From NCBI GenBank assembly GCA_020429235.1, contig JAGQLQ010000013.1, positions 8,050-72,049 on the forward strand: DNA of 64,000 nt, read 5' to 3'. Below are positions 16,805-55,347 of this stretch, in pieces (position 1 is the stretch's first letter; every line of letters starts with the position of its first letter). This stretch comes from Candidatus Peregrinibacteria bacterium (GTDB taxonomy: Bacteria; Patescibacteriota; Gracilibacteria; UBA1369). Both the position numbers and the translations under genes were made by a program. Below the pieces are notes generated by a model. That model had not been told where the DNA came from, did not search any database, and saw only the letters and a list, made by a program, of their open reading frames with translations.

Positions 16805-16881
16805 TGGCGGAACGGACGGGACTCGAACCCGCGACCTCCTGCGTGACAGGCAGGCGTTCTAGCCAGCTGAACTACCGCTCC
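16805..16881 (-). tRNA. tRNA-Asp (GTC), CCA encoded
   Basis: Hand-folded cloverleaf: GGAGCGG acceptor stem, CTGTCAC anticodon loop, GGTTCGAGTCC T-arm. Confidence 0.9.
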
Positions 16882-22354: not shown

Positions 22355-23593
22355 ATGCCGAAAGCGAGAGTAATCGCTAGCCTCGATATTGGAAGCTCAA
22401 AGATCCGAACCGTCGTTGGCACACTCGAAGAAAAATCACCTGTGCCAAATATTATCGGCGTTGGAATCGCACCATCAACCGGCCTTCGAAAAGGATCGGT
22501 TATTGACGTAGAAGAAACCATTAGCAGTATCTCATCTTCATTGGAAGATGCGGAGCGGATGGCAGGAGAACCAATCAATCATGTATTCCTTGGAATTGGT
22601 GGAAACCATATTGAATCCATTAACTCAAAGGGAGTTATTGCCGTTTCAAACGCAACAAACGAAATCACCGAAGACGACGTTGATCGTGTTTTGGAAGCAG
22701 CTCAAGCCGTTTCTATTCCAGGAAACCGCCGCATTCTGCGCATTATTCCAAAATCATTCACGGTCGACGAGCAAAAAGGCATCAAATACCCAGTGGGAAT
22801 GACAGGAATCCGCCTTGAAGTGGATGCCCACATTATTACCGGACTCGTTCCAAGCGTGAAGAACATTGAAAAATGTGTATTGCAAGCCGGTGTGGATATC
22901 GATGACATCATCCCTTCTTGCCTTGCTGCATCAGAAGCGGTGCTTTCAAAGAGACAGAAAGAGCTTGGAGTTGTGGTAGTGGATATTGGATCAGGAGGAA
23001 CAGCAGTGAGTGTTTTTGAAGAAGGAACAACCCTGCACACAGCAATCCTCCCTGCAGGAGGAGAAAACGTAACCAACGACATTGCTATTGGACTGCGAAC
23101 CTCAATCGACACCGCAGAAAAGATTAAAATCGAATACGGAACCTGCAACCCTGCAGACGTGAACGACCGGGAAATTATTGACCTTTCACTCATTTCAAAA
23201 ATCGACACCCAGAAAGTTTCCAAGAAACTTATGGCAGAAATCATTCAGGCCCGATACCACGAAATCTTTGTTCTGGTAAAAGACGAGCTCGCAAAGATCC
23301 ACCGCGACGGTATGCTCCCGGCCGGAGTTGTCCTTACCGGTGCTGGTGTAAAAATGCCAGGAACAATCGACCTTGCGCGTGAAACACTCAACCTTCCGGT
23401 ACAGATTGGATTCCCTCAGAACTTCGACGGAGTGGTCGACAAAATCGACGATCCAGCTTATGCTACTGCTATAGGTTTGATCCTTTGGGGATCACGCCTT
23501 GAGCACCGAACCTATGGCTTCTCACTCAAAGGACTCGACTTTAGGAAGGCTATGGGCGGCATGAAAGACTGGGTTAAGAACCTCTTTCCCTAA
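22355..23593 (+). CDS. ftsA: Cell division protein FtsA
   Basis: Actin-fold motifs (SLDIGSSKIR, VVDIGSGGT) and position directly upstream of ftsZ. Confidence 0.9.
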   Translation: MPKARVIASLDIGSSKIRTVVGTLEEKSPVPNIIGVGIAPSTGLRKGSVIDVEETISSISSSLEDAERMAGEPINHVFLGIGGNHIESINSKGVIAVSNATNEITEDDVDRVLEAAQAVSIPGNRRILRIIPKSFTVDEQKGIKYPVGMTGIRLEVDAHIITGLVPSVKNIEKCVLQAGVDIDDIIPSCLAASEAVLSKRQKELGVVVVDIGSGGTAVSVFEEGTTLHTAILPAGGENVTNDIAIGLRTSIDTAEKIKIEYGTCNPADVNDREIIDLSLISKIDTQKVSKKLMAEIIQARYHEIFVLVKDELAKIHRDGMLPAGVVLTGAGVKMPGTIDLARETLNLPVQIGFPQNFDGVVDKIDDPAYATAIGLILWGSRLEHRTYGFSLKGLDFRKAMGGMKDWVKNLFP

Positions 23594-23691
23594 GCAAGAC
23601 AGAACATTAAAAAATCTTCTTGACATTTTATCAAGTGACGGGTAAAAATAGTAATCCACTTAAAAAATAAGTACTCTTTACGTACCCTCCT

Positions 23692-24927
23692 ATGGCTACC
23701 AATCATCAAAAAGACTCGCTTCGAAATCTCTTTTCAGGATCGGGTTCATCACAAACAGGTAAGCGCACACAAGAAGTCGTGCCAGAAGTAAGTCCAATTG
23801 CTCTTATTAAAGTAGTTGGTGTTGGTGGTGCCGGTGGAAACGCTTTGAATCGAATGATCAAATCGAACCTCCGTGGCATCGAATTTATTGCAGTGAATAC
23901 AGATGCACAAGCACTCTATCACTCAGAAGCGCCAACAAAGATCAACATTGGTAAAGCCACAACACGAGGACTCGGAGCTGGTTCAAATCCAGACATTGGA
24001 CGACAGGCTGCTGAAGAGTCAGCAGAAGAGATTCGACAACAATTGGAAGGTGCAGACATGGTCTTCATCACAGCCGGTATGGGAGGAGGAACCGGTACAG
24101 GTGCAGGTCCTGTCATTGCAGACATCGCCAAAGAAATGGGAGTTCTGACCGTTGGAGTGGTTACAAGACCATTCTCATTCGAAGGACATCGACGAATTCA
24201 ACAGGCAGAAGACGGAATTGAGAATTTGAAGAACAAGGTAGATACACTTATCACCATCCCAAACGACAAGATTCTTTCTATCATCGACAAAAAAACACCA
24301 CTCACCGAAGCATTCACCGTTTGTGACGATGTACTTCGGCAGGGTGTACAAGGTATTGCTGACTTGATCACCGTTCACGGAATGATCAACGTTGACTTTG
24401 CCGACGTGAAGACCGTTATGGAAAATGCCGGATCAGCCCTTATGGGTATTGGATACGGAGCTGGAGAAAACCGGGCACTCGAAGCTGCAAAAGCCGCTAT
24501 CGAAAGCCCACTTCTTGAGCTTTCAATCGACGGTGCGAAGGGTGTTCTCTTCAACATTACTGGTGGAAACGACCTCAGCATGTTCGAAGTAGACGAAGCA
24601 GCCAAGATCATTACCGAAGCTGCAGACCCGGATGCCAACATCATCTTTGGTGCAGTTATCAACGATTCATACACAGGAGAAATCAAAATTACTGTTGTAG
24701 CAACAGGATTCGACGAATCACTCCGATCAGGAACTTCTGTACTCCGACAACACTCAGCACTTGGAGGATCATTCAGCAGCAACCCACTCGGAAAATCTTC
24801 GACTGCAACTCCAGCCAATCCAACTGCAACTCCAACCAATGGAGCTGACAAAGACATGAAATCAAACCAACCAGTACAAGAAAGCGAACTCGACATCCCG
24901 GCATTCATCCGAAAAAAGATGAACTAG
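23692..24927 (+). CDS. ftsZ: Cell division GTPase FtsZ
   Basis: GVGGAGGNA and the [11 protein letters not shown] tubulin signature. The C-terminal DIPAFIRKK peptide is the FtsA-binding tail. Confidence 0.95.
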
Positions 24928-28872: not shown

Positions 28873-31443
28873 TTAAGAAATACGAGGATCATATGCCGAA
28901 TCCACAACCACCACATTCATGCCATGGTACGCCATCGCGTGTGAAATTGGCAGGTGGTGTTCCTTCCCGCCCTTTGGCCACGATTCATGGAGCGCGCCAA
29001 TCGTCAAAAATGAAACCTCATCGGATGACCGCAAAACCTGATCGGCCAGATATGACGCAATAAAGGCATTATGCGCATCCATCCGATACAACAAGCTCTC
29101 TTTCCCTTCCATAATCAAATTTTTCGACTCATCAAAATCGTATCCGCGAACATCCAGGCCATTCCCTGCAACAAGCTTGGCTTGAAAAGAAGCATAATCA
29201 AACTGCTCCCGATATTCCGGAGGAACATTTTTTTTCATCTCCTCAATAGCCGTTGAAATATGCTCTTTTGGAATAGTTTTCGGAAAATCCTGCATCGAAT
29301 AGTTGCGGGGCGTTCCTTCATCATAAACAGTATCAATAAATCCGGCTTCATACGCGCGTAAAATAGCATCACGAATCTCTGCCTGAGAATCTGCAGTGGA
29401 TCGGCCTCCCCCTTCACCGGCCATTGATTGTGCTTTTTTCTCAGTTTCCGCATCAAGACTCAAACCCGGAACAGCCGGGTGAGCCTGCATAAAAAGAACG
29501 ACAGTTTTTGCATTTGGATTCGCGCTTTCCACAACATATGACGGATGAATTTCAAGTTTCTTTAATTGATCCACCGCTTCACGTAGTGAATTAGAGCCAA
29601 CTCCCTCAATCTCTTCAATCCCAACTTTCTTCACGCCGGACTTCTCCACTTCAGCTTTCATCTCTGTGGCAATCTCCTCAAATGCCGTATCAATGTGTGT
29701 TTCTTTCTTCGAGTCAAAGTCACCCCGCAGATCCTTATACGTTTTTTCCAAAGCAAAAAGATCCGGGTCTTTTGGATGATCTTTCTTGAGTTGGTCCAAA
29801 AGTTTCTTGGAATCATCCAGGATTTTTTCAACCGATTGACCGGACGCTTTCAATTTTTCATCATCTTCCATTAAAATCACCAGCTTCTCACGGAGTTTGT
29901 CCGCAGGAGATTCTGGGGCTTGTTCAACATTCTTTTTATAAAGTTTCCCATACTTTCCCTCAGGGGCTGGCGTTGGTGACGGAGCTGGTCCGGGAGCCGG
30001 ACTTGGTGTCTGTTTGTCTTCTTTTTGTCGTGCTGCCTCACGCTCATCAGCCTTTCTTTTCTCCTCTTGTTGCACCGCGGCATCATCCAGTTCACTATCC
30101 ATCGACTTCACTTTTGTCAAAATCGACTCCATATAACTGAGCGACGAATCCACCTGTTTCGACATCACGAGCAACTCATCTGTACTACTAAACTCACTTA
30201 CGAGAATTTTTTTCATATCCTTTTCAGCATAAGCAAGCCGTTGATTCACAACATCAATATCCTCTTCAGAAAAATGATTCAGTGATTCATTCCGTTTCAT
30301 CATCCTTGCCGCTGCATCATTCACACTCTTATAGGTCGTCTCCAAACTGCTTCCCAGTTTCTGTGCATACTCAATCGCCTCAACCCGAAGCGCCTCTTTC
30401 ACCCGATCAATTTGTCTGGCATCATCAGTAGAGCCAATATCCTCAGGATTTTTCTGTAAAAACATCCGATCATCCGGATTTTTCAACTTCAATCCAACGC
30501 CTTTTTCAAGCTGCTCTGCATATTTTTGAAGACCGGTAAACTCATCCTGCACGCTCTTTTTTTCATCCATCCATTCATTCGGAGAAAGCACCAGCGCCAA
30601 CGCGTGCATCTGATGTTTCCCGGTTTCCAGATCAAGCCGGTCCGGATCCTCCGGCTTTTGGTTGTCCGGTAAATTTAAAACATTTCCATAATTTTTAATG
30701 GTCTGCAAAAGATACGCGCGATAAGCAGATTCATCTTTTTGTGAAAGATTTTCCCCGGCAGCCATCAGGTAAGCGACAGCAAAACCTTCGCTTTCCTTGG
30801 CCAGTTTTAGATCTTTGACCATGTTCAGATACTTCTCCATATTCAAACCCTTTGCTGTATTTTCCAGATTTAAATGAGCATCAAAATTCAAATTCCACCC
30901 ATCATCAGAATGCTCATACACATCAACCGCCTTCTTAAACCACGCTTCTCCAAGCTTATCACTTATCATGGACCAACCAGCCAAAAAACCATTCAAGCGA
31001 TTCCGTGCCGGACTGACAGCATTCTCTTCCCCCCACCATTCATAATCAGTGATCCTCGCGTCCGAAGCATCGGGATCGGTCACTCCAAATGCCCATTCCC
31101 GCTTTTTCTGGACCTTATCAAGTCGCCCCTGCAGCGTATCTTTTAAAGAAAGAAGCTTATTCTGCATCGCGATCGACCGCTGAACCTCTTTCGACATAAA
31201 CTTACGCGCCAGCGTTTGCTTGTCCTTCTCCATATTTTTCATGGAATCCAGTCTCCCCAAAAGCCGATCGCGGGTTTGTTTCAACCACTCGATCTGCCGA
31301 TTCATATGTTCGTTGTCGGTGTATCCCTTAAAATGATCCTTTACACGCTGAATCTCTTCCCGATAAGCATCCTTAATATCGTCCGCCTTTACATCATCGC
31401 CGGCATCAATCCGAAACCCAAGTTGTTGCAGATTCATAGCCAT
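28873..31443 (-). CDS. Hypothetical protein (856 aa), third gene of orphan operon
   Basis: Long clean ORF. It has a Pro-rich linker (PSPAPGPAPSPTPAP) and a C-terminal ~270 aa globular region with QAH and GALH histidine motifs. Confidence 0.6.
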   Translation of the reverse strand: MAMNLQQLGFRIDAGDDVKADDIKDAYREEIQRVKDHFKGYTDNEHMNRQIEWLKQTRDRLLGRLDSMKNMEKDKQTLARKFMSKEVQRSIAMQNKLLSLKDTLQGRLDKVQKKREWAFGVTDPDASDARITDYEWWGEENAVSPARNRLNGFLAGWSMISDKLGEAWFKKAVDVYEHSDDGWNLNFDAHLNLENTAKGLNMEKYLNMVKDLKLAKESEGFAVAYLMAAGENLSQKDESAYRAYLLQTIKNYGNVLNLPDNQKPEDPDRLDLETGKHQMHALALVLSPNEWMDEKKSVQDEFTGLQKYAEQLEKGVGLKLKNPDDRMFLQKNPEDIGSTDDARQIDRVKEALRVEAIEYAQKLGSSLETTYKSVNDAAARMMKRNESLNHFSEEDIDVVNQRLAYAEKDMKKILVSEFSSTDELLVMSKQVDSSLSYMESILTKVKSMDSELDDAAVQQEEKRKADEREAARQKEDKQTPSPAPGPAPSPTPAPEGKYGKLYKKNVEQAPESPADKLREKLVILMEDDEKLKASGQSVEKILDDSKKLLDQLKKDHPKDPDLFALEKTYKDLRGDFDSKKETHIDTAFEEIATEMKAEVEKSGVKKVGIEEIEGVGSNSLREAVDQLKKLEIHPSYVVESANPNAKTVVLFMQAHPAVPGLSLDAETEKKAQSMAGEGGGRSTADSQAEIRDAILRAYEAGFIDTVYDEGTPRNYSMQDFPKTIPKEHISTAIEEMKKNVPPEYREQFDYASFQAKLVAGNGLDVRGYDFDESKNLIMEGKESLLYRMDAHNAFIASYLADQVLRSSDEVSFLTIGALHESWPKGGKEHHLPISHAMAYHGMNVVVVDSAYDPRIS

Positions 31444-31463
31444 TCACATGCGTTGGTCAGGAA

Positions 31464-33794
31464 CTAAGCGGTCTTTTTAGGAGCAAAGAAATCTTCCTTC
31501 TTTTTGTCCTCTTCCTTTTTCACTTCCACAATCACCTTCTTCTCCGCACCATCTTCTTTATAGGTCACGCTGTAGAATCCAGGATCCTGATCTTTCACCT
31601 TCTCCTGAACCTTCTGTGGGACATCCTCTTTTTTAAGATGATCACCCCTTTCTGCAGCTTCCGCCTTGGCAACATCAATCGGGTCTTTTGCAAAAGCCTC
31701 AAGACCTTTATCTCCGCCACCCTCTTTTGGAGCTCCGCTTGGTTGTCCACCTGGAGCCTGTGATGGCTTGGCATTCGTCGGATCTTTTTCTACCTCTCCA
31801 GAATCCTTTCGTTCAATACCAAGACCCTTTTCCCATCCAAGAACCTTTGGCATTCGCTTCTTCAAAGAGTCCAATTCTTCCTTGTTCGACTCAAGCCATG
31901 CCTTCTTATCTTCAGCTTTTTCATACGCTGCCTTCATACTCACAGCCTGTCGGTACTGCGTTGGAGAAGTTCGTGAAGCCGTATGATCAGTCATCACAAG
32001 AAGAACTTTGCTGGTATCCGCCTTATCTTTTTCAAGTTGCTCATCAACTTTTGGCTTCTTTTCTTCTTCTTTCTGCTCCTGCTTTTTTTGAGCTTTTTCC
32101 AGGTCTGATTTGTAGTTATAAGCAGCGCGGATGTTAGCGTCAATCAACTTCCGAATTCGTTCTTGAGCCTCAAGATCACCCATCAAAGCTTTCCCACCAC
32201 CAGCCAGCTGAACTTCATCACGAATTCGCTTCATAAGTTCACTATCACGACCAAGCTTGTCATTGATCATAGCCTTATACTTCTTCAAAAATTCAGGATC
32301 CTTTTTCCCATACATTTGATCAGCACCTTCCATTAGGCCGGCAATCATTGCGAGGCCCTTCCCACCAACCATATAACGAAGAGTCTCATCTCCATAAGCA
32401 CTAGAATGATCCATAATATACTTACTAATATCCAAATCATTCACATTCATTTTTGCAGAATCAAAATTCCCACCCATCATTTTCGCCAAAGTTCGTTGAG
32501 CAATTCTATCCCATTCAGATGGGTCATTACTTGCCCACATAGCTCCTTCCAATGCACTGCGAATCATTGCAAGTCGGCTCGGATCATCAATCTCTTCATT
32601 GAACTGAATCTTTCCCAAAACAGTATCAATAAAATTAGAGCGATCCTTTTCCGCCCCATGAAGGACTTCTTTTAGTTGTTCAGAATCACCATGCTCTTTT
32701 AGCCATTGGGCTGGAGAAAGAATATCCTGATCATTAGTCCCTTTATTCAACTTATCCATAAAATCTGCATCGCCCATCTTTTCTTGGACATAAGCCTGGT
32801 AGGCCTTAAACGCTCCAGGGGCATTATGCTTTTCAGAAAAATATTTATCAGCAGAAGCCATCTTTCCAAGAATATGGCCCACAGCTTTTGGCTTATCTAC
32901 AGGCGCTCCCATTCTTTCAGTAACATGCTTGAACATGCTCATATCTTTTACATTCGATTTTTCATCAGGTTGAAAAGACGCATCGTAAACAAACCAGTTA
33001 ATCTGTCTTTTATCGCCACCATTCTCAAGTCTTTGTTTTTTGATTTTTTCAACCAAAGCATCAGCAGCTTCTTTTCCTTGTTCTTCATACGTCGTTTGAA
33101 CTGTTTCGGTAAGGAAATCGAGCTGATCTGTACGGGTCCAGTTGGTTGAACCTCCAGCAGCTTTCCCTTCAACATGTTGTTGCATCTGCATCCCCTTCGC
33201 AAAATGGCTATCATCATTCAAGGGAGCAGACTGATGGAACTGAAAGTTCTTCTTTACCGATGCTTTCACAGTATCCCAGTTTCCTTCATCCTCTTTGTTT
33301 GGATGATTTTGTCGCAATTCAACATCATGCGCTTCCATCTCAAGCACAATTGATTGTCGATACTTGGTCGCCTCTTCTTTAATCTCAGCATTGCGAGCTT
33401 TTACCGCAGATTCAATCTTACCCAAAGAAGTGTCTCGCGCAGTTTCGAGCTCTTTTTTGTATTGCTTCAATTTCTCAGGAATTTTCTTTTTTTCCGCCTC
33501 AATATCAGATTTCAATTTATCCTTGTTCGGATCATCATCCTTAATCGCTGCCAATTTCGCATCAAGCATCCCCTCCAATTCTGTCTTCTTGGAATCAACT
33601 TTTCCTTTAATAATCCCATCATAGTACGTCTTGTCAGTATCAGATTTGTACTCAGTCACGGTTTCCGCCTTCTTGGCAGCTTCAATTTTTGACCCCTCTG
33701 TTTCAGAAAAAGGATTCTCAGACGGTCCACCTTCATAAACAAATCGAGGACCCATGGAAGGGACAAAGTTTGTGTGACAGTATAAAAATTTCAT
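31464..33794 (-). CDS. Hypothetical K/E-rich protein (776 aa), second gene of orphan operon
   Basis: Long clean ORF with 20-nt gaps to both neighbours and no motif I recognise. Confidence 0.6.
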   Translation of the reverse strand: MKFLYCHTNFVPSMGPRFVYEGGPSENPFSETEGSKIEAAKKAETVTEYKSDTDKTYYDGIIKGKVDSKKTELEGMLDAKLAAIKDDDPNKDKLKSDIEAEKKKIPEKLKQYKKELETARDTSLGKIESAVKARNAEIKEEATKYRQSIVLEMEAHDVELRQNHPNKEDEGNWDTVKASVKKNFQFHQSAPLNDDSHFAKGMQMQQHVEGKAAGGSTNWTRTDQLDFLTETVQTTYEEQGKEAADALVEKIKKQRLENGGDKRQINWFVYDASFQPDEKSNVKDMSMFKHVTERMGAPVDKPKAVGHILGKMASADKYFSEKHNAPGAFKAYQAYVQEKMGDADFMDKLNKGTNDQDILSPAQWLKEHGDSEQLKEVLHGAEKDRSNFIDTVLGKIQFNEEIDDPSRLAMIRSALEGAMWASNDPSEWDRIAQRTLAKMMGGNFDSAKMNVNDLDISKYIMDHSSAYGDETLRYMVGGKGLAMIAGLMEGADQMYGKKDPEFLKKYKAMINDKLGRDSELMKRIRDEVQLAGGGKALMGDLEAQERIRKLIDANIRAAYNYKSDLEKAQKKQEQKEEEKKPKVDEQLEKDKADTSKVLLVMTDHTASRTSPTQYRQAVSMKAAYEKAEDKKAWLESNKEELDSLKKRMPKVLGWEKGLGIERKDSGEVEKDPTNAKPSQAPGGQPSGAPKEGGGDKGLEAFAKDPIDVAKAEAAERGDHLKKEDVPQKVQEKVKDQDPGFYSVTYKEDGAEKKVIVEVKKEEDKKKEDFFAPKKTA

Positions 33795-38229: not shown

Positions 38230-39765
38230 ATGTCAGTCGCAAGAAAAATTCTCATGAATACGGGTGCCCAGATTGGAGCCAAAGCAGTTTTGGCCTTCAT
38301 CGGATTCGCCACTGTTCGCTTCATTACCAACTATCTTGAAGTAGAAGGATACGGATACTACACCGGTGTCTACGACTTCATCGCCTTTTTTGGAATCGCT
38401 TCAGACCTTGGACTCTACACCATCGCCGTCCGCGAAATGGCTCGCGATGAGAAAAATGTCGACAAAATCATCGGAAACGTCCTCACCATCCGCACCATCC
38501 TGGTACTCATCACCATGACGTTGGCCTTTGTTTCAGCCTTTTTTTATCTCCCAACAGACTCAAATTTCTTCCTGCCGGGAGCCGTGGCAATCGGTGCAAC
38601 CGCCACCATTTTTGCACTCCTCACCGGAACCGTTTCTTCCGTTTTGCAGGTGCACTACAAAATGCAGTACAACGCATTCGCATCCGTGGTTGGAAAGGTC
38701 GTCACACTCGCTTACATGGTGTATGTGATCTTCATCTGGAACCCGGGTGTGAGTGAAGCCGGATTCTATCATCTCTTTGTAGCTGGAATTATCGGGAACA
38801 TTTTCCTCTTTGGAATCTCCCTCTATTATGCCAAAAAGTTTGCCAACATTCGTTTCCAGCTGGATTGGAAATTCATGAAAGGAGTGATCGTCAAATCGCT
38901 TCCGTACGGATTGGCACTCATCCTCAACAACCTCTATTTCCGCATCGGATCGCTCATGCTCGTCCGTATGTCAGGACCGGAGCAAACCGCACTTTACGGA
39001 CTTCCACTCCGCGTTTTGGAAGCCATTGCCATCCTGCCGCTCTACTTCATGAACGCGGTCCTTCCAACCCTCACCAAAACACTGAAAGAAAAATCCGAAC
39101 GATACAAACAGGTTATCCAGTACTCTTTCGATGCCCTGGTTATGGGAGGAGTCGCCATGGCAGTCGGAATGTCCGCCATCTCGTATCAGGTCATCTATCT
39201 CCTTTCAAACGAAGACTTCCTTACCAACCCTGCCACAGGCTTTTACGGTGCCGACGTCGCCCTGCAAATTGTTATTTTCGCGCTGGCATTCTCATTTATT
39301 AATACTCTTTTCGGATTCACACTCGTCGCAATCGGAAAGCAGTCAAAACTGCTCTACGTAAACGGAACCGGAGCAGTGCTGGCCATTATTCTCAACCTTT
39401 TCCTTATTCCTGAGCTTGGTGCCCGCGGAGCCGCTATCACCGATATTATTGTCGAAATGTTTGTGGCGCTCGCAGCGTATCTTTTCGCCAAGAAATACCT
39501 CGACTTCAAAATCAGTCTTAAGAATACATTCAAAATCATCGCCGCCGCTGCCGCTATGGGAGCTGCCGTTCACTTTGGCGCAGAGCCAACCTATAACCTC
39601 TTCGGCCTTGGCAATAAAAACATCCTTCTCCTTATCCCACTCGGAGGAATCATCTACATCAGCCTCCTCTTTATCATGAAGGTCATCACTCCGGAAATGA
39701 TCGCCCTCGTCCGTAAGCCAAAGAAAGAGACGCCAAAGACAGAAGGAGATATCGACGGAAATTAA
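38230..39765 (+). CDS. MOP-superfamily flippase (MurJ/Wzx-like)
   Basis: The 511 aa product has about 14 TM helices and an N-terminal pattern typical of polysaccharide/lipid II flippases. Confidence 0.7.
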   Translation: MSVARKILMNTGAQIGAKAVLAFIGFATVRFITNYLEVEGYGYYTGVYDFIAFFGIASDLGLYTIAVREMARDEKNVDKIIGNVLTIRTILVLITMTLAFVSAFFYLPTDSNFFLPGAVAIGATATIFALLTGTVSSVLQVHYKMQYNAFASVVGKVVTLAYMVYVIFIWNPGVSEAGFYHLFVAGIIGNIFLFGISLYYAKKFANIRFQLDWKFMKGVIVKSLPYGLALILNNLYFRIGSLMLVRMSGPEQTALYGLPLRVLEAIAILPLYFMNAVLPTLTKTLKEKSERYKQVIQYSFDALVMGGVAMAVGMSAISYQVIYLLSNEDFLTNPATGFYGADVALQIVIFALAFSFINTLFGFTLVAIGKQSKLLYVNGTGAVLAIILNLFLIPELGARGAAITDIIVEMFVALAAYLFAKKYLDFKISLKNTFKIIAAAAAMGAAVHFGAEPTYNLFGLGNKNILLLIPLGGIIYISLLFIMKVITPEMIALVRKPKKETPKTEGDIDGN

Positions 39766-43308: not shown

Positions 43309-43337
43309 TTGACAAAAAAGCAAAAAGTTACTATTTT
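43309..43337 (+). promoter_or_regulatory. Putative sigma70-type promoter for the FHA-like giant gene
   Basis: TTGACA, a 17-nt spacer, then TATTTT. The first 13 nt are identical to those at 4589. Confidence 0.45.
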
Positions 43338-43368
43338 ACCTCCCTTCAGGAAGAATCATATTTTTGTT

Positions 43369-46300
43369 ATGAATAAGCCAAAAAATCCAGACAGCAGCGA
43401 TATCAGGGATTCAAATGAAGTCGATCCAACTGCCCACACGGAGCATGCAATGCCCGTTATGCCAGAGATCGACGAGAGTATTCCAGAAGATCAAAGAGTG
43501 ACATTGCCGGTCATTTCCCCTGAAGATCTTGGGAAAGTTGGCCATGCCAAAACCGAACATGACATGCATGCCATTGAGCCAACAATAGCTGTAGAAGCCA
43601 TTACCGACCTCAAGGATCTTCCACCGGCAAAAATAGTTTCTATGCCTCCGCCGGCTCCATCAATAGCACCACCATCAATTAGGGTAAGGCAGGATGAAAG
43701 TTTCATCGAAAATTTCGATGTTATTGATAGATCGGTAGCCATAATCACAAATGAAAAAGGATCAGCCACTATTGCCACCATCCCTCTGTTTACCGGATTC
43801 AGCACCAACCACTACGATGGAAATGAAGAGTACGATCCAAAAGCATCATTTTTCACCATCGGAACCGATCCGCTTTGTGATATCCACTTGGAAAAGATCG
43901 ACAATCCTTGCATTCAGCCGCACCACGCGATTATCAAAATCCAGAATGGAAAGGCTTTCATTCGCGGAAAAGAAGGACTGGTAAGGCTCAACGGTGAACC
44001 GGCAATAACATGGCAGGAAGTCGATCCCGAAAAAGACATTGTAAAAATCATTCCAAAACAGGGAAATCATGGCGTAAAAATCATGGAGCCACGATACCTC
44101 AAAATAAATCCACGTCAGGTTCACATTGAGGAAGAAGACCAGAAAGTCATGATCGACACACTGCGAACTCGCGCAACAAATGTCGTAAAAGCAATGAATC
44201 AGGCAATACAAACACTCTTGAAAGATCCAGCGCACAACCCAGAATTAGCAGAAAAAGTTCAGCAGTTGGGAGCACTTCTTCAGGAGCTCATCGATATCGA
44301 CACTGACATAGGATATTGCTGTCTTAAAAGCCACGCCCTCTTCTTCATGCGATATTTCGATATCGCAAAAGAGACAAAGGACCAAATGGAAAACGTCCTC
44401 GCAGAGGTTCGTGGAATAGACGGTATTCGCGCAGAAATCGACGAAAGAACAAAACGCATCGAAGCAATGGAAAAAGCTCACCACAGCAGAGCATGTGAAC
44501 TCTGGGAAGTTGATGACATCCATTTCACACCGGACGAAGACCCACTCAACAAAGAACAGGTACCATACGTTTTCCGCTGTCCGGTCTTTACCATAAAAAA
44601 GAATGGAGGAATGACGTCAAAACCAGTCCCAATGCTCATCCCGGCTATGGATATTGGAACCCATCCGGTGTGTCACATTGAGCTTGATCCATCATCAGAA
44701 TCCAAACCAAACAGCAAGAACCACATTGCCCCATTTGCCGGAAAACTTTTTTATCAATACGAAGGCGGAGAACGGGTTCTGTACTTCCAATATCTCCAGC
44801 CAAACGTTCTCATCAAGAGCACGGAAACATCAGCCAAAAAAGTACCGCCACCAACAGAAACCTTCAGAGTTACCGAAGACATGACTATTCATATTGGAGG
44901 TTACGAACTCAAAGTGGATAACCGGACCCATGGATTTACCTATGGCTCAATCAAAAATGACCTTCTTGGCAGCATCGAAAAGCCAGGAATTATTGATGAA
45001 CTTTTCGAATGCATAGATGATCAGGCAGTCACAACATGGGAACAAGATGACCAGGCTATACGCTACCTTCAAGCGATTATTGAAGGCATTGAACAAAGCA
45101 ATCTCCCGGAAGAAGAAAAGCAGGAGTTCCGCGATAAGTATCAGGAAAAATATGAAAAAATTACCCTAAAACTTATTGGAAAGATTCAGGATGGATGGCG
45201 TGAAGAGGAACCACATGCAGATTCAGGACATTTCCAGACACTGCTTCTTTTTGCTCAGGCAGAAGACGGATTTGCAAGAGAGGCACAATGTATGTACGCG
45301 CCGGACGGGATTCTGAAGTACGAAGCAGAAAGAAGAGTCCATATCTACACCAGGAATCATCATCGCGCTCTTCCAGAAAGCGAAAATACAATACTAGGAA
45401 GATGGAAAAACAGATCTACAAGACAATGGGTAGAACCAGATGTGAATCCAACTGCAGCAGTAGAAGTGGCCCGTTTCCTTGAATTTGGACTCATTGAAGA
45501 CGAGCAAGTGGAAGACCTTGGACGCTTCACAGATCGTATTCAGAAGATTCTCAAAGTTCGCGAACAGTTCAGAAAACTCGACAACGACCACACCAATTTA
45601 GAGGAAATCCTGGAGCTCAGAGATCTCTGCAACAACCTTTCCATGAATGACATTTTTGCTGCCGAAGAGATTGAAACCAGAAACCTTCACATTGAAGTGG
45701 ACATGAAACCCGAAGGAAAAGCCAGAGAGTATGTCCGAAAAATCTGTATTTTTCAGGCAAGAAAAGCCTTTAAGCGACTCAAGGAAAGCAATGACCCGGA
45801 ACACATCCGTGCTGACGAAGCCCTTATTACAGGACTCTGCGTCGTAGGAATCATGCAAAAATTTGAACTCATCGATAACGTAAATGACTTCATTCCTCAG
45901 GATGAAATCGACGCCATCATTAGTCAAAAACGGGAAGAAAACCCAGCCGCAACCGATGAAGAACTAAGAAATCAAATTAAGACTCAGGAGGCCAACGACC
46001 TCATCAGTGAACAGCTCACCAAGGCAGAAGCACTGGAACAGGCCGAAAAAGCACGTGAAAGACTGGAAGAAGACATTAATCAGGCCGTAAAACATGTGGC
46101 AATCATTCAGGATCAAAACATGAATGCCCGCGACAAAAAAGGTATGTCTTTTGAAGAGTTGCAGCAGATGATGCCACTAACAAAAGTGGTTTTTAGTCCG
46201 GGACTCCGAAAAGTCATGGACGACACAACCTATGACCTTCACGTTGATGAAATAGAATACAATGCTGGGAAAGCACGAGCAAAAGCCACTCCAACACGTT

Positions 46301-46800
46301 TAAACTGGCATCGAATCTTTAAACAATGGATAGGCCGCTTTCAAAGCGGACTTCGTCTTGTTGGAAGAAAATCCCTCAGTTCAGGCGAAAACCTGGAAGC
46401 CATGTATCAAATGGTCGATTATGCACTGACACAGGGATACGTTGATCAGGAAGATTTCAATGAAATACATGGGGAACTCCGTCGTGCCGCCAAAGCAAAG
46501 CAATATAAGACGGCAGCTTCTGCAGCAGCAGTGACAAATTTCGATTATCTGGAACAGACTCCTATTCACAAATACAGCACACCACGAGACAAAGATTTTT
46601 ATGAAAGTGTCAAAAATGAAATCACAGCGCAAAAACTTCAGCAGATGATAGATGGATACAGATCAGGGACTGCTAATGAGAAATTTAAGTATCAAATGAA
46701 GATAAAAGAACTTCAAAGAAAAGAGCCAATCGCGACCGACATCCTGAAAAGAATGGATCTAACAGCAAAAGAACGAGACCTTTTACAATTAAGCGCGTAA
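43369..46800 (+). CDS. Giant orphan protein (1143 aa) with two FHA-like segments
   Basis: FFTIGTDPLCDIHL...HHAIIKIQNGKAFIRGKEGLVRLNGEP, plus a second segment MDIGTHPVCHIELD.... The rest is helical with no known motif. I placed the start at the ATG downstream of the promoter. Confidence 0.55.
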   Translation: MNKPKNPDSSDIRDSNEVDPTAHTEHAMPVMPEIDESIPEDQRVTLPVISPEDLGKVGHAKTEHDMHAIEPTIAVEAITDLKDLPPAKIVSMPPPAPSIAPPSIRVRQDESFIENFDVIDRSVAIITNEKGSATIATIPLFTGFSTNHYDGNEEYDPKASFFTIGTDPLCDIHLEKIDNPCIQPHHAIIKIQNGKAFIRGKEGLVRLNGEPAITWQEVDPEKDIVKIIPKQGNHGVKIMEPRYLKINPRQVHIEEEDQKVMIDTLRTRATNVVKAMNQAIQTLLKDPAHNPELAEKVQQLGALLQELIDIDTDIGYCCLKSHALFFMRYFDIAKETKDQMENVLAEVRGIDGIRAEIDERTKRIEAMEKAHHSRACELWEVDDIHFTPDEDPLNKEQVPYVFRCPVFTIKKNGGMTSKPVPMLIPAMDIGTHPVCHIELDPSSESKPNSKNHIAPFAGKLFYQYEGGERVLYFQYLQPNVLIKSTETSAKKVPPPTETFRVTEDMTIHIGGYELKVDNRTHGFTYGSIKNDLLGSIEKPGIIDELFECIDDQAVTTWEQDDQAIRYLQAIIEGIEQSNLPEEEKQEFRDKYQEKYEKITLKLIGKIQDGWREEEPHADSGHFQTLLLFAQAEDGFAREAQCMYAPDGILKYEAERRVHIYTRNHHRALPESENTILGRWKNRSTRQWVEPDVNPTAAVEVARFLEFGLIEDEQVEDLGRFTDRIQKILKVREQFRKLDNDHTNLEEILELRDLCNNLSMNDIFAAEEIETRNLHIEVDMKPEGKAREYVRKICIFQARKAFKRLKESNDPEHIRADEALITGLCVVGIMQKFELIDNVNDFIPQDEIDAIISQKREENPAATDEELRNQIKTQEANDLISEQLTKAEALEQAEKARERLEEDINQAVKHVAIIQDQNMNARDKKGMSFEELQQMMPLTKVVFSPGLRKVMDDTTYDLHVDEIEYNAGKARAKATPTRLNWHRIFKQWIGRFQSGLRLVGRKSLSSGENLEAMYQMVDYALTQGYVDQEDFNEIHGELRRAAKAKQYKTAASAAAVTNFDYLEQTPIHKYSTPRDKDFYESVKNEITAQKLQQMIDGYRSGTANEKFKYQMKIKELQRKEPIATDILKRMDLTAKERDLLQLSA

Positions 46801-48076: not shown

Positions 48077-48162
48077 TGGTGGGCAGGGAGGGATTCGAAC
48101 CCCCGAAGGCGTAAGCCATCAGATTTACAGTCTGACCTCGTTGACCGCTTGAGTACCTACCC
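48077..48162 (-). tRNA. tRNA-Tyr (GTA), long variable arm, CCA encoded
   Basis: Hand-folded: GGGTAGG acceptor stem, CTGTAAA anticodon loop, class II variable arm, GGTTCGAATCC T-arm. Confidence 0.9.
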
Positions 48163-48172
48163 ACATTTTCAA

Positions 48173-48248
48173 TGGAGCCACCTGTCGGACTCGAACCGAC
48201 GACCCACTGTTTACAAAACAGTTGCTCTACCAGCTGAGCTAAGGTGGC
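48173..48248 (-). tRNA. tRNA-Thr (TGT), CCA encoded
   Basis: Hand-folded: GCCACCT acceptor stem, TTTGTAA anticodon loop, GGTTCGAGTCC T-arm. Confidence 0.9.
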
Positions 48249-51058: not shown

Positions 51059-51292
51059 CTATTCGTCTTCTTCAATAATGTACGCTGGCAGTTTTCCGCT
51101 ACTCATCAGCCACATCATAATGGCAATACCAAGAAAAACCACACTGATGACAATATAGCCAAACAGCCCTAGTTCACCTTGTTCCGGACTAAAAAACTCC
51201 AAATAGGTAATAAAAATCCACAACAAAACAAACATTGGCATCATAATCCAACGAATCCATTTTGGGAGAAAAACTTTTTTCGTCTTTTTCAT
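51059..51292 (-). CDS. Small two-TM membrane protein (77 aa)
   Basis: I moved the start to MKKTKKVF, because the longer track ORF runs into tRNA-Pro. Confidence 0.45.
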   Translation of the reverse strand: MKKTKKVFLPKWIRWIMMPMFVLLWIFITYLEFFSPEQGELGLFGYIVISVVFLGIAIMMWLMSSGKLPAYIIEEDE

Positions 51293-51306
51293 GAGCAATG
51301 TGTAAA

Positions 51307-51383
51307 TGGTCGGGGTGAGAGGGCTCGAACCTCCGACCTCACGGTCCCAAACCGTGCGCGCTAGCCAACTGCGCCACACCCCG
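51307..51383 (-). tRNA. tRNA-Pro (TGG), CCA encoded
   Basis: Hand-folded: CGGGGTG acceptor stem, TTTGGGA anticodon loop, GGTTCGAGCCC T-arm. Confidence 0.9.
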
Positions 51384-51450: not shown

Positions 51451-51963
51451 ATGGAAAAATACTATCGCCAAACCATCGGTTTACCCGTGATTTCGCATTC
51501 CAGACAGCCACTCACGCGTGTTCGGGATGTCATTATCGACACGGACAAAGGCAAAATCGTTGGCTTTTTTGTGATGGGAGGATCAAATCATGTTGTTGCC
51601 CCAATTGATATCCTTGAGTGGAACAGCGTCATCATGATCAACGATCAGGAAGACATTATTGAACCGGATGAGGTTCATACCATTCGTGAAGCACTAAAAA
51701 AAGACGCAACAATTTTCAAAAAAAGGGTCTACACCAAAAGTGGTGACTACTTGGGCAAAGTGCTCGATTTTGGCATGAACAGTCAGCTCTACGAACTCAC
51801 AGTCATCATTGTCTCAAAAGCCTTTCTCAGCCTCTTTTTCTGGGATAAAAAAATCATCTCCTCTAAAGACATCATCCGCATCAAGCCGGACCGCATCATT
51901 GTTAAAGACCTGGTACAAACCGTTCCAATGGAAAAATTTCAGGTCGACATGGCATCGCCATAG
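51451..51963 (+). CDS. PRC-barrel domain protein (two YlmC/YmxH-like repeats)
   Basis: GLPVIS...LTRVRDVIIDTDKGKIVGFFV and a second similar half. Confidence 0.6.
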   Translation: MEKYYRQTIGLPVISHSRQPLTRVRDVIIDTDKGKIVGFFVMGGSNHVVAPIDILEWNSVIMINDQEDIIEPDEVHTIREALKKDATIFKKRVYTKSGDYLGKVLDFGMNSQLYELTVIIVSKAFLSLFFWDKKIISSKDIIRIKPDRIIVKDLVQTVPMEKFQVDMASP

Positions 51964-51980
51964 AGTGGACAATTGTCTGT

Positions 51981-52487
51981 CTACTCATCATCTTCCGCAA
52001 TAACACGCCATTTGTCGTGTCCCACAATTTCATCCTGAAGAGCATACATACGTTTTCGATCATATTTGGTTTCATGATCAAAGCCAAATACATGCAAAAG
52101 TCCGTGAATAAACAGGTATGTCGACTCATCTTTTGGTGGAATTCCATGCTCTTTGGCCTGTTTATGAGCCGTATCAACAGAAATAAAAATCTCTCCCACC
52201 ATATCTTCGCCAGGAAAAGGGCTTTCCTCAAAGTAGCTAAGAGAAATCACATCAGTCGGCTTATCCATATCGCGATAGTTTCGATTCAACTGCTGAATTT
52301 CCTGATCACTCACAAAAAACGCTTTTACCACACCTCCATGCATCTTCTTTGCCAATTCCGCATCTTTCTTCAAGACCTGAATAGCTTTTTGATAAATTGG
52401 ATCCAAATCACTTTCAACAAGATCGCATTCATGACAACGTTGATTCACCTCCAATGTAAACGGTTTATCTTCGTGGTCTTTATGCAT
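51981..52487 (-). CDS. ybeY: rRNA maturation endoribonuclease YbeY
   Basis: The HGLLHVFGFDHE zinc motif. I moved the start to MHKDHEDK, 4 nt after the upstream stop. Confidence 0.85.
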   Translation of the reverse strand: MHKDHEDKPFTLEVNQRCHECDLVESDLDPIYQKAIQVLKKDAELAKKMHGGVVKAFFVSDQEIQQLNRNYRDMDKPTDVISLSYFEESPFPGEDMVGEIFISVDTAHKQAKEHGIPPKDESTYLFIHGLLHVFGFDHETKYDRKRMYALQDEIVGHDKWRVIAEDDE

Positions 52488-52491
52488 AAAA

Positions 52492-53247
52492 TTAAGCTCC
52501 GGGATTACGAATAGCAAATGCCTGACTCTGAAGCTGATCATCCATGCCCTTAGAAGCCATTTGAGCGTTTTGAATCATTTCGTTGAGTTCACCAACGGTA
52601 ATAATCTCATCAGGCCGGAAATAGTCAATTTCTGGGGTTATACCGTGTTCGAATGCAAAGTTCAGATAGCGGTTATACCACCAGTTCTCTTCATATGTGA
52701 GAGCTTCATCCAGATATGGGGTTGAATGAACGGTTTCCTCTTCAGAAACCTCAAAACGTTCCTCCCAATCCATGAGGTCAGAAGCGCCCAAAACAATCTT
52801 CAAAGCCTGAATACGTGACATCACAATTTCCGGACGAAAAGGAGTATCCTCCTCCTGCAAATAGCCATGTACCAGTCCAAGCATAGATGCCACATTAATA
52901 TCATGGTAAAAACGAGAATTTGGAGTTACATCCGGATAGAGGCTCAAGAAAGGCTCAAAAGCAATACCATCAAAGTCTGACATAGCCGAAAAAACAAAGA
53001 AACACTCATCCAGATGGTTTTGGCAGGATGTTAGGAAGGATGATTCCCGCTCTGCAAGCTGAAAAGAGGTAACAATAGTCGACACCACCTCTCCGCGAGT
53101 CAGTAAACGCGACTCATACTCATGGTCTGGATTTCGTATAGCAGCAAAAGCTCTTTGCTGAGAAAAAAGCAGCAGCACAAAGGCGGCAGCCAGGGAGAAC
53201 AACAGGTAACGATTCCCACCAATACGTCGATATATACTTCGATTCAA
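52492..53247 (-). CDS. Secreted hypothetical protein (251 aa), possibly with SLH-like segments
   Basis: Signal peptide (LLFSLAAAFVLLLFSQQRAFA). The LTRGEVVSTIV and MSRIQALKIVL segments resemble SLH repeats. Confidence 0.45.
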   Translation of the reverse strand: MNRSIYRRIGGNRYLLFSLAAAFVLLLFSQQRAFAAIRNPDHEYESRLLTRGEVVSTIVTSFQLAERESSFLTSCQNHLDECFFVFSAMSDFDGIAFEPFLSLYPDVTPNSRFYHDINVASMLGLVHGYLQEEDTPFRPEIVMSRIQALKIVLGASDLMDWEERFEVSEEETVHSTPYLDEALTYEENWWYNRYLNFAFEHGITPEIDYFRPDEIITVGELNEMIQNAQMASKGMDDQLQSQAFAIRNPGA

Positions 53248-53329
53248 GAGTTTTCCGATTAAAGAGCTTAACTTTAATTATATGGATTTCGATGATGAAG
53301 TAAAGGGACTTCAGGACAAATACTCCTTA

Positions 53330-53460
53330 TCAGTCTTGTCGACATCGAGTCGACAGTGGACAGAAGGAAGAGACTTGAAGCTAGACATTTGTCGACATGC
53401 TGTCTACAATGTCGATAAGTTTGTCGACTCGATGTCGACTTAATGTCAATAGACAAGGTA
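53330..53460. promoter_or_regulatory. Divergent intergenic region packed with TGTCGACA-type palindromes
   Basis: Five exact GTCGAC cores plus GTGGACA, TAGACA, GTCTACA, GTCGATA and GTCAATAGACA variants within about 130 nt. Confidence 0.55.
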
Positions 53461-54084
53461 TCAATGGCAGAAAATTTCCAAACAGACAGAAAAGCAGCTG
53501 CAAAACTGCTAAATGTGTCGGTCAGGACAGTAGACAGGTACATTGCTTCAAATAGATTGTCTATTCAACGTCGAGACAATAGAATTTGGCTTTCAAAAAA
53601 GGATATAGTTGAATTTAGAGATGGCCGACAAGTAGACACGTCTGATGTCGATATGTCTATAGACGTCGATAGCCAAAATAGTGTGGACAGGAGCACCGCG
53701 GGTGTCGACTCATTGTCGACACCCGCGGAAAAAATTTCCGCAAACAAAAAAGCACGTTCCGCATCCACCATTTATAAAAAGCTCTACGAACAAACCCACG
53801 AAGAACTTAAAAACGCACAAAAACGGCTGGAAGGTGCCAACTACCGAGTCGGACAACTGGAGTCACTGGTAAAAGAGAGCGTACCACTTCTGGACCATCA
53901 ACGCCTCCTTGGTGAGGAAAAGGCAGAAAGATTCCAATTGGAAGAAGAGGTGGAAACCCTCCGTGACAAAATCGAACGAATGAAAACAAAGATCAAAGAA
54001 GAGACCTTCAGTCGAAAAGCTTATTTGATAGCACTTTTCATCATCCTGCTCCTCCAGCCACTCTGGCTGCTCCTTCTCCGCTAA
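53443..54084 (+). CDS. Excisionase/MerR-type HTH protein with coiled coil and C-terminal membrane anchor
   Basis: AAKLLNVSVRTVDRYIASNRLSIQRRDNRIWLSKKDIVEF (HTH_17-like), a coiled coil, and the tail anchor AYLIALFIILLLQPLWLLLL. An alternative start lies at 53464. Confidence 0.65.
   Translation: MSIDKVSMAENFQTDRKAAAKLLNVSVRTVDRYIASNRLSIQRRDNRIWLSKKDIVEFRDGRQVDTSDVDMSIDVDSQNSVDRSTAGVDSLSTPAEKISANKKARSASTIYKKLYEQTHEELKNAQKRLEGANYRVGQLESLVKESVPLLDHQRLLGEEKAERFQLEEEVETLRDKIERMKTKIKEETFSRKAYLIALFIILLLQPLWLLLLR
53696..53728. repeat. Perfect 14-bp inverted repeat inside the HTH gene
   Basis: CCGCGGGTGTCGAC - TCATT - GTCGACACCCGCGG, followed by AAAAAATTT. Confidence 0.8.
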
Positions 54085-54630
54085 TTACTGGATCAACTCA
54101 ATCGGAATAATATCCAGCTCTAATTTCGGATGCTCTTCTTCACGAACAAGAAAAGGATAGTTTCGAATCCATGAATCATCTGGAAAGACTGGAGCAGTAT
54201 CAAATGATCCTTGAAGCCAGACAATAGGCTCTGGTTCCTCTTTTTTATAAACAGGAAGATCAAAATCGAAATGCAAACTTGATTCTTGAAAAGAATCAAA
54301 ACGGCTCACAGGAACCTCTTTATGAACCTCAACCATTTCAGGCTCAGCCTCACATACACCTCCTTCACTATCAACAGCGCCACCGAATGAAGAATCCGGG
54401 CAAACCTGAGCAACCTGATTGGCTGTTGAAGTTTGAACATCATGAGCATTGAGCGCCAGTCCGAGCATAGTCCCACCACAAAGTATCATCCCATTTCTAA
54501 ATCGGGACTCCTTTTTAAGCTTGGCCTGGTTTCGTGTAAGACCATCAATAATTTCCTGCTGCTTATGCACCTGAGCTTTAAGATCATCAAGTTGATCAGT
54601 AAGTCCGTGACTACGGTGGGGGCTATTCAT
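54085..54630 (-). CDS. Hypothetical coiled-coil / single-TM protein (181 aa)
   Basis: N-terminal coiled coil (LDDLKAQVHKQQEIIDGL), then a TM helix (MILCGGTMLGLAL). It lies downstream of the two DUF881 genes. Confidence 0.5.
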   Translation of the reverse strand: MNSPHRSHGLTDQLDDLKAQVHKQQEIIDGLTRNQAKLKKESRFRNGMILCGGTMLGLALNAHDVQTSTANQVAQVCPDSSFGGAVDSEGGVCEAEPEMVEVHKEVPVSRFDSFQESSLHFDFDLPVYKKEEPEPIVWLQGSFDTAPVFPDDSWIRNYPFLVREEEHPKLELDIIPIELIQ

Positions 54631-54699
54631 AGATTCTGTTTAAATTACAACAATAAAAATATTGCGCCTTTTAATAATTTTGTCAAAAAAGAGCTATTG

Positions 54700-55347
54700 C
54701 TACAAAACTTTCTCCATGGTGACAGCATCTCTTTGCTCAACCACAACTTCGACACCATTCACCGAACGTTGTAGCCGCTCAATAATACCTTCGGGCTGGA
54801 TAAGAGCATTTTCCAAAACAGACCTCTCTCCAATTGCCTCAATGGTGTAAGGCTCATTCAAAATCACAGAATTAATCATAATTTGCCCACTTGGAATGGT
54901 GTCAAAACCAGCTGTCTTATTCGTTAATCGGATAGAATTAACACTCACAGCTTCTGCCCCGGCGGAAAGAAGTTCATTAACCATATCCGTAAGCCATAAA
55001 GCTTGAATATCACCAGAAATCTGAACATGAAGCCCAGGACCGGAGATATCAATCTTACCGGTAAGTGCTTCATACTGATCAATCTCCTCGCGAACACTGT
55101 CGAGCGCGTCCTGATTATTCGAAACCTTCACGAGTTGATCCTCCAAATCATCAATTTCATCACGCAATTGACCATTGGTATCCTTCAAAATCTGAATCTC
55201 CCGAAAAACATCCGAGCGGTTATTCCGGTTAATCACATCACTCACATCCTCAAAAGATCGGGCCTGCAACGCAATCAAAAATCCCAGCAACACTGCTGTC
55301 AAAAGTATTGATACCTCTCTTTTCTTTATGTTGTGCAATTGCTTCAT
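54700..55347 (-). CDS. DUF881 (YlxW/YlxX-like) division-associated membrane protein
   Basis: N-terminal TM helix, coiled coil and C-terminal DUF881 pattern (...GPGLHVQISGD...IRLTNKTAGF...). Confidence 0.75.
   Translation of the reverse strand: MKQLHNIKKREVSILLTAVLLGFLIALQARSFEDVSDVINRNNRSDVFREIQILKDTNGQLRDEIDDLEDQLVKVSNNQDALDSVREEIDQYEALTGKIDISGPGLHVQISGDIQALWLTDMVNELLSAGAEAVSVNSIRLTNKTAGFDTIPSGQIMINSVILNEPYTIEAIGERSVLENALIQPEGIIERLQRSVNGVEVVVEQRDAVTMEKVL

Follow-up and report, generated by a model that had tools for sequence, protein, structure and literature searches.

A dense array of short repeats, which runs from the promoter into the 5' half of the coding region of a helix-turn-helix (HTH) gene (53464-54084, forward strand, 206 aa), was analysed in a 64,000-nt stretch of DNA (the window) from an uncultured Candidatus Peregrinibacteria bacterium (contig JAGQLQ010000013.1, assembly GCA_020429235.1). 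This array, first pointed out in an earlier note on the window, is non-random, conserved and tied to the HTH gene, and it is probably the cis-acting binding site of the very protein encoded on it, which would make that protein a putative self-repressing tether between DNA and membrane. The note had read the region as an iteron or centromere-like array of the palindrome TGTCGACA, bound by the protein encoded on top of it. The self-targeted array is retained here as the best reading, with binding by the protein inferred, whereas the palindromic unit and the replication iteron are not.

The hexamer GTCGAC was present in 17 copies in the window, compared with 7.6 +/- 2.7 in 100 dinucleotide-preserving shuffles, none of which reached 17. 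Seven of these copies fell within about 390 nt, at exactly the positions previously listed (53338, 53349, 53391, 53423, 53434, 53704 and 53715), and the remaining ten were spread over the other ~63.6 kb at chance level, indicating that the word is not generally over-represented; an evenly common word, which the note had named as grounds for refutation, is not what the window shows. The octamer TGTCGACA had exactly four copies in the window, three of them inside the array, and when up to one mismatch was allowed 11 of its 36 matches lay within 53337-53721. The word T[ACG]GACA, derived from the family comparison described below, gave 21 strand-specific matches in the same interval against ~0.46 expected from its frequency in the rest of the window (76 matches, ~1.2 per kb). 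The degenerate copies GTGGACA, GTCTACA, GTAGACA and GTCGATA were all found, as were the split copies TGTCAATAGACA at 53444 and TGTCTATAGACG at 53654. Clusters of sites were sought in the window and in the flanks (+/-10 kb) of 80 genomes, and outside the array no 150-nt stretch of the window held more than three copies of T[ACG]GACA. The only other places in the window with three copies in 150 nt were 38326-38500 and 51940-52125, the latter with three to four isolated copies (TCGACA, TGGACA, TGTCTA, TGTCGA) at the convergent 3' ends of a PRC-barrel gene and ybeY, which are probably due to chance.

The comparison set comprised 80 orthologous loci fetched with flanks of up to 10 kb from Peregrinibacteria and Peribacteria, one of which (L001, contig CALMAI010000027.1) encodes a protein 99% identical to the HTH protein of the window. 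When k-mers at -300 to +400 around the gene start were compared with the flanks in 79 loci (excluding the genome of the window itself), the most enriched word was TAGACA, with 763 occurrences observed and 18.7 expected (41-fold), and it was found in all 79; the enrichment of GTCGAC in this comparison was only 16-fold. Alignment of all GACA-containing sites gave the consensus w-R-T-[A>C,G]-G-A-C-A, and the repeat unit is an asymmetric word of 7-8 nt, wRTAGACA, whose copies recur every 10-11 bp within oriented blocks. The genome of the window often has C at the degenerate position, a tendency common to the more G+C-rich genomes of the set, and many of its copies consequently read as the SalI palindrome. 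Judged from these aligned sites, TGTCGACA is the variant of the family word used by the species of the window and not the conserved unit, with GTCGAC representing one choice at a single degenerate position. The clustering of sites at orthologous genes, one of the checks previously proposed, was thus borne out, with the asymmetric TAGACA in place of a palindrome.

The arrays were tallied on 76 loci, among which 58 carried at least three sites both upstream of and inside the gene and 73 carried at least one such array, with 13-20 or more phased sites per locus. Distances between copies of the same orientation in the upstream array peaked at 10-11, 22, 33 and 44 bp, so that the copies face one side of the DNA helix, and inverted copies were mostly TGTC-TATA-GACA or TGTCGACA. 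The largest upstream expansion, in L074, comprised ~25 copies over ~450 bp (-512 to -60). The divergent gene carried further copies near the 5' end of its coding sequence in L010 (-630 to -310), L073 (-900 to -640) and L205 (1430-1510), where they again impose VD/ID peptides. All of these secondary arrays in relatives adjoin the HTH gene, and within +/-10 kb in the 80 genomes and across the 64-kb window there was no comparable cluster away from the HTH gene and its divergent neighbour. A few weak clusters of three to five sites occurred elsewhere in the flanks, recurring at no gene family, and no recurrent second target was found in 1.1 Mb of flanks. A metagenome-wide scan for three direct TAGACA repeats, meant to show whether such arrays occur away from the HTH gene, was swamped by eukaryotic and other satellites, and among the matches listed 2/120 loci carried the HTH gene.

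The upstream array lies at -150 to -1, with a median of seven sites per locus, and its blocks run +, -, + when measured from the conserved RTVDRY codons. In the window, the distal block (53337-53362, TGTCGACA-tcgag-TCGACA-g-TGGACA) contains four half-sites with spacings of 11 and 7, is located between two divergent promoters and has an equivalent '+' block in the orthologues. It is followed by the core promoter of the HTH gene (53382-53410, forward strand), the best sigma-70-like sequence in the region with 10/12 consensus matches, whose -35 element is itself a motif copy (TAGACA, 53382-53387) and is separated by a 17-nt spacer from the -10 element (TACAAT, 53405-53410). One TGTCGACA copy (53390-53397) lies inside the spacer and a TGTCTA (53401-53406) overlaps the -10 element. 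The 5' untranslated region (5' UTR) carries a further block (53410-53455), formed by TGTCGA at 53410, 53422 and 53433 and the split palindrome TGTCAATAGACA at 53444-53455, with spacings of 12, 11 and 11 bp, ending 8 nt short of the start codon. The '-' block of the orthologues occupies the same place and usually ends in TGTCTATAGACA or TGTCTATGGACA, directly before the ribosome-binding site. Promoter tallies on 74 loci placed a motif copy at the -35 hexamer in 51, a figure somewhat inflated because TAGACA and TGGACA are each one mismatch from TTGACA, and a further copy in the spacer in 47; spacers in relatives measured 16-18 nt. The start codon previously assumed at 53443 is replaced here by the ATG at 53464 as the likely start, giving the 206 aa seen in all called homologues and leaving the whole of the TGTCAATAGACA copy in the 5' UTR. 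The divergent SLH-like gene (52492-53247) has a promoter-like site of its own on the reverse strand (53277-53304; TTTACT, 16 nt, TATAAT).

The second array is located inside the coding sequence, at +150 to +300 (median six sites), in codons for a disordered linker. In the window it extends over 53633-53721, with TAGACA at 53633, TGTCGA at 53646, TGTCTA (TAGACg) at 53654, TGGACA at 53684, TGTCGA at 53703 and TGTCGACA at 53714; it encodes VDTSDVDMSIDVDSQNSVDRSTAGVDSLST, and the repetitive V-D peptide VDTSDVDMSIDVDSQNSVDRSTAGVDSLSTP is present as earlier described. Across the family the linker motif was read as V/I-D-x ('+' strand, frame 1) in 216 cases, as M/V/L-S-T/I ('-' strand, frame 1) in 143 and as x-V-D/Y ('-' strand, frame 2) in 62. 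Linker V-D pairs were coded GT[ACG]GAC in 163/186 cases (88%), compared with 20% in flanking open reading frames (ORFs), and GTTGAT, the commonest coding of V-D in the background (29%), was down to 4% in the linker. The use of several frames and both strands, together with this synonymous bias, indicates selection on the DNA and not on the peptide, one word encoding unrelated peptides, in agreement with the earlier proposal that the DNA motif constrains the protein sequence. The VD, MSID and (M/L/V)ST peptides of the linker look conserved in a protein alignment, and on this comparison they are imprints of the DNA sites. Two further sites lie in the DNA-binding domain (53531-53563): V-D-R of the recognition helix (TVDRY) is encoded by GTAGACAG, and L-S-I by TTGTCTAT. 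Among the 78 loci tallied for these sites, 47 carried one on the V-D-R codons (53531-53536 in the window) and 46 on the L-S-x codons 33 bp downstream (53558-53563), so even codons of the DNA-binding domain appear to have been chosen to carry sites.

The encoded protein comprises a winged HTH (residues 5-56), a disordered linker (58-87), a long helix (88-185) and a transmembrane helix (187-205). It matched the Pfam family HTH_17 at E = 8e-6, slightly below the gathering score, as well as MerR, and among 29 family members HTH_17 matched 27 and MerR 15. An AlphaFold2 model had a mean predicted local distance difference test score (pLDDT) of 79, with a winged helix of pLDDT ~90 (strand-helix-helix-hairpin-helix), disorder at residues 58-87 (pLDDT < 50), where the length of the linker also varies across the alignment, and a single long helix over 88-205, of lower confidence near the conserved SVPLL segment. 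Within the long helix, RLEGANYRVGQLE is invariant across the family, as would be expected of a specific contact with another protein. Kyte-Doolittle hydropathy averages 2.57 over the final 19 residues (YLIALFIILLLQPLWLLLL), the C-terminal segment LFIILLLQPLW is conserved and the protein stops at the transmembrane helix, with no extracytoplasmic sensor domain; as this hydrophobic segment stands at the very end, the protein is predicted to be tail-anchored. Pfam, the fold model and the hydropathy values agree with the original description of an excisionase/MerR-type HTH protein that has a coiled coil, modelled here as a long helix, and a membrane anchor at its C-terminus. Foldseek matches were confined to the winged helix (E 0.02-0.09, probability 1.0), with the RacA DNA-binding domain on DNA (5i44) at the top (probability 1.0, root-mean-square deviation 2.2 Å), followed by Pukovnik Xis (4j2n, from a mycobacteriophage), BldC on direct repeats (6ama), GlnR and pSK1 Par on centromere DNA (8csh), and with TubR among the weaker matches. 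The family has 357 close matches and 483 representatives at 50% identity, all of ~200-300 residues, and its named members, from Peregrinibacteria, Peribacteria or 'Gracilibacteria', are annotated only as hypothetical. NCBIfam and PADLOC returned merely weak HTH-only or coiled-coil noise, and a literature search on DUF881 and on HTH or division proteins of Peregrinibacteria found nothing relevant. The HTH protein family is so far undescribed.

The architecture of the protein is closest to that of a group of membrane-tethering DNA-binding proteins. In RacA, a winged helix is joined to a coiled coil by a linker that is divergent and disordered (PMC4914108); RocS, RicO and probably Par have, in addition, a helix at the C-terminus that binds the membrane (PMC11500499; bioRxiv 10.64898/2026.03.06.710092). 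The chromosome anchors RacA, RocS and RicO, like pSK1 Par, are described as acting by array-bound multivalent membrane tethering (PMC4914108; PMC11500499; bioRxiv 10.64898/2026.03.06.710092). Like RacA of B. subtilis, RocS of S. pneumoniae and RicO of S. aureus, the HTH protein begins with a MerR-type winged helix, followed by a divergent disordered linker and a predicted coiled coil, and at its C-terminus it bears a putative membrane-targeting element; its proposed sites, like theirs, are short TG...CA-bounded motifs in clusters, and the DNA-binding domain of RacA is its best structural match. The membrane element is of a different kind, being an amphipathic helix in RocS and RicO, provided via DivIVA in RacA and an integral transmembrane tail here, although the tail may be functionally equivalent. 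The present family shows no significant sequence similarity to these anchors and has no DUF536 (the domain of RocS and Par), which matched none of the 29 family members. Its sites are packed into ~400 bp on its own gene, whereas those of RacA form 25 regions and those of RicO nine sites over 600-700 kb around the origin, and it belongs to the candidate phyla radiation (CPR) and not to the Firmicutes lineage of RacA, RocS and RicO. Given the lack of sequence homology and of DUF536, the transmembrane anchor and the position of the sites on its own gene, membership in the RacA/RocS/RicO/Par family is not established.

The staphylococcal plasmid partition protein pSK1 Par, a single-protein system, has a winged helix and a coiled coil together with a C-terminus predicted to associate with the membrane (PMC11500499). 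The HTH gene likewise encodes these three elements in one protein, and 8csh is among its top fold matches. The centromere-like repeats of pSK1 are reportedly located directly upstream of the par gene. Unlike pSK1 Par, the present system is found at a chromosomal locus with phylum-wide synteny, its array runs into the coding sequence, and plasmid records yielded no homologue.

The geometry of the sites recalls two further groups of proteins. BldC and Xis bind cooperatively, head to tail, to direct repeats spaced by roughly one turn of the helix; BldC of Streptomyces and Xis share the small winged-helix fold with the HTH protein, and their repeat spacing matches the 10-11 bp period found here, but they are single-domain proteins of 55-70 residues with no coiled coil or anchor, and there is no integrase or att context at the present locus. 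In the parC/ParR system of R1 and in tubC/TubR, tandem repeats of ~11 bp over the promoter of the binder gene serve both autoregulation and the partition complex, and the phased repeats over the promoter of the HTH gene, with a median of seven upstream sites and a motif copy as the -35 hexamer in most of the loci tallied, are of this type. No partner nucleoside triphosphatase (ParM, TubZ or ParA) is encoded near the HTH gene, and ParR has a ribbon-helix-helix fold in contrast to the winged helix here, where the protein itself is membrane-anchored.

In the mechanism considered probable here, each winged-helix monomer would read one wRT[A/C/G]GACA copy, and copies of the same orientation one turn apart would align the domains head to tail in the manner of Xis and BldC. 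The linker and long helix would confer multivalency, with dimers or tetramers bridging oppositely oriented blocks and possibly also the promoter and intragenic arrays, which are ~250 bp apart. Since motif copies take up the -35 element, the spacer, the 5' UTR and the edge of the -10 element, occupancy of the array should silence the promoter of the HTH gene itself (negative autoregulation). As the protein is fixed in the membrane, a bound array would also be a membrane-tethered array and the chromosomal locus would be held at the membrane, forming a one-gene DNA-membrane tether of the type represented by RacA, RocS, RicO and pSK1 Par. Such a tether could either have a role in chromosome positioning or be a by-product of a membrane-bound autoregulator.

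Several observations weigh against this reading. The Foldseek matches are weak, with E-values of only 0.02-0.09, and a profile search of the PDB gave only Pukovnik Xis (E = 0.16) and RacA (E = 0.79), both non-significant. No convincing covariation was seen across the family between the recognition helix and the motif variants, and the choice of A, C or G at the degenerate position, including the use of TCGACA, appears to track the G+C content of the genome. The promoter call is in part circular, since the motif is itself close to TTGACA. Four loci (L043, L047, L070 and L075) have no array, indicating that the array is dispensable to the protein. In this subfamily the HTH, long helix and membrane anchor are the same and the linker is lysine-rich, without VD or MSID, which may represent a switch to non-specific DNA binding.

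An extended form of the tether, offered only tentatively, is a single self-contained 'kinetochore gene' that positions or segregates the small chromosome, its tail-anchored protein loading in cis on its own promoter and linker array. The nascent DNA-binding domain would leave the ribosome at the moment when transcription of the linker array is complete, and the resulting patch would be the membrane attachment point of the chromosome, beside the DUF881 and murI envelope genes. On this view the array has persisted long enough for the DNA motif to determine the linker sequence of the protein, and one clade also keeps a covarying hairpin of 14-16 bp.

The rival that survives best is an ordinary autoregulated transcription factor, for which the array would be an elaborate operator, possibly with looping between promoter and intragenic sites; the real targets would be single sites elsewhere, for instance at envelope or division genes, and the membrane anchor would sequester or regulate the factor, for instance by proteolytic release. 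This is considered unlikely, although it agrees with the coverage of the -35 element, spacer and 5' UTR by motif copies, with the weak clusters of three to five sites at a few other places in the flanks and with the existence of MerR-type regulators beside division genes, such as FtsR of Corynebacterium, which controls ftsZ (PMC6683498). Many arrays or single sites elsewhere in the genome, if present, would favour such a regulator with a regulon over a tether. Autorepression would need far less than the 13-20 or more sites in phase per locus, or the ~25 of L074, and a second array maintained within the gene at the expense of the protein sequence. The protein also has no extracytoplasmic sensor domain, the 1.1 Mb of flanks showed no recurrent second target and, in the window, ftsA and ftsZ have no cluster.

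Less probable still is that the array is bound by another protein, or by region 4 of the RNA polymerase sigma factor through -35-like words, with the HTH gene as a mere target. The single mismatch separating TAGACA and TGGACA from TTGACA speaks for this, as does the indirect nature of the link between protein and motif. The array, however, tracks the HTH gene family over ~80 genomes, inside the coding sequence and on both strands, the subfamily that lost it changed its linker as well, and oriented repeats recurring every 10-11 bp are in keeping with how the BldC/Xis fold binds.

It is very improbable that the region is a replication origin with iterons or DnaA-box-like sites, or that a mobile element attaches here and has the HTH protein as its excisionase. 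Short-repeat arrays are typical of origins, Ca. Peribacter riflensis has short repeats near its origin (PMC4736985) and HTH_17 is an excisionase family, but neither the window nor any of 33 loci with flanks of 8 kb showed a sign change in GC skew, and no dnaA or dnaN was present among the large window ORFs scanned. The term 'iteron', in its sense of a replication origin, was therefore dropped. Against a mobile element stand chromosomal synteny kept across the lineage, the lack of an integrase among the annotated neighbours and searches of phage and plasmid collections, which gave no homologue of the HTH protein. The least credible alternative, selection for a repetitive VD/MSID peptide with the DNA motif as a by-product, has the apparent conservation of these peptides in its favour and was rejected on the enrichment of the same word in the non-coding promoter, its three frame and strand combinations giving unrelated peptides, and the synonymous bias in a region predicted to be disordered.

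Two familiar protein types were also set aside. An Xis of a mobile element is a small single-domain protein beside an integrase and att site, whereas the present protein has 206 aa with a coiled coil and a transmembrane helix. A canonical MerR activator was rejected because there the DNA-binding domain runs straight into a dimerisation helix, with an effector domain at the C-terminus and the operator in a promoter spacer of 19-20 bp, whereas the HTH domain here is followed by a 30-residue disordered linker, there is no effector domain and the spacer is 17 nt.

Chromosome organisation and partition in candidate-phyla bacteria are essentially unknown, with no culture available for genetics, and this locus provides a concrete candidate. 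As a one-gene system, its array and putative membrane-anchored binder could be moved into a model host, and it may extend the RacA/RocS/RicO/Par type of anchor, itself recognised only lately, beyond the Firmicutes with a true transmembrane anchor. It also provides an unusually clear case in which a putative protein-binding DNA motif overrides amino-acid and codon choice in the gene of its own binder, and the clarity with which selection for a DNA motif shows within a protein-coding gene is notable in its own right.

The intragenic array of the window ends in a perfect 14-bp inverted repeat with a 5-nt loop (53696-53709 and 53715-53728; CCGCGGGTGTCGAC tcatt GTCGACACCCGCGG), present exactly as first described. 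Its apex is formed by two motif copies 11 bp apart, beyond which six to ten more bases are complementary, and as RNA the stem has a folding energy of -35.3 kcal/mol (z = -7). Seven relatives, with proteins 54-87% identical, have different outer arms (CCGCGGG, GCAGCGGA, GCGCCGGA, GGCGGCGGA, GCGACAGGA), yet their complementarity is kept. In an alignment of the hairpin, 5/15 pairs were changed on both sides and 98% of cells were paired, a level of covariation reached by 0/500 shuffles, and only 22-55% of cells paired in control structures shifted by one to three columns. This GC-rich covarying hairpin (53696-53741 in the window, 4617-4653 in L002, and also in L081, L083, L085, L086 and L087) is limited to the clade of the window and is not family-wide. 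It may act either in RNA (pausing, processing) or in DNA (as a cruciform, presenting two sites), and it might be kept up by template-switch correction of a quasi-palindrome. No known RNA family was found in an Rfam search of 52400-54700. The 3' arm in the window overlaps a second small palindrome, GCGGAAA-AAA-TTTCCGC (53725-53741), and L015 and L022 have palindromes of the GAAAATTTC type at the matching relative position.

The gene order around the array, ybeY <- SLH-like <- / -> HTH / <- DUF881 <- DUF881 / -> murI, is kept in 55-62 of the 80 loci, with the divergent arrangement of the HTH and SLH-like genes kept in 57, and the neighbourhood of ybeY, two DUF881 genes and murI is as originally reported. 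A 181-aa ORF without family match (54085-54630, reverse strand), with a coiled-coil-like N-terminal region and one hydrophobic segment, lies between the HTH gene and the first DUF881 gene. It is found only in the clade of the window (L081 has a 192-aa counterpart), and in most relatives the first DUF881 gene directly follows the HTH gene. The window also encodes ftsA and ftsZ (30 kb upstream), murB and a Mur ligase, none of which has a motif cluster nearby in the window. In the intervals 22355-24927, 28873-33794 and 43309-46800, three very large ORFs (856, 776 and 1163 aa) have no Pfam match at E <= 1e-5. Genes for tRNA-Pro, tRNA-Tyr, tRNA-Thr and tRNA-Asp are located at 51307-51383, 48077-48248 and 16805-16881, all on the reverse strand, and the 'ORF' at 51059-51379, which partly reads through tRNA-Pro, is probably spurious at its 5' end or shorter there.

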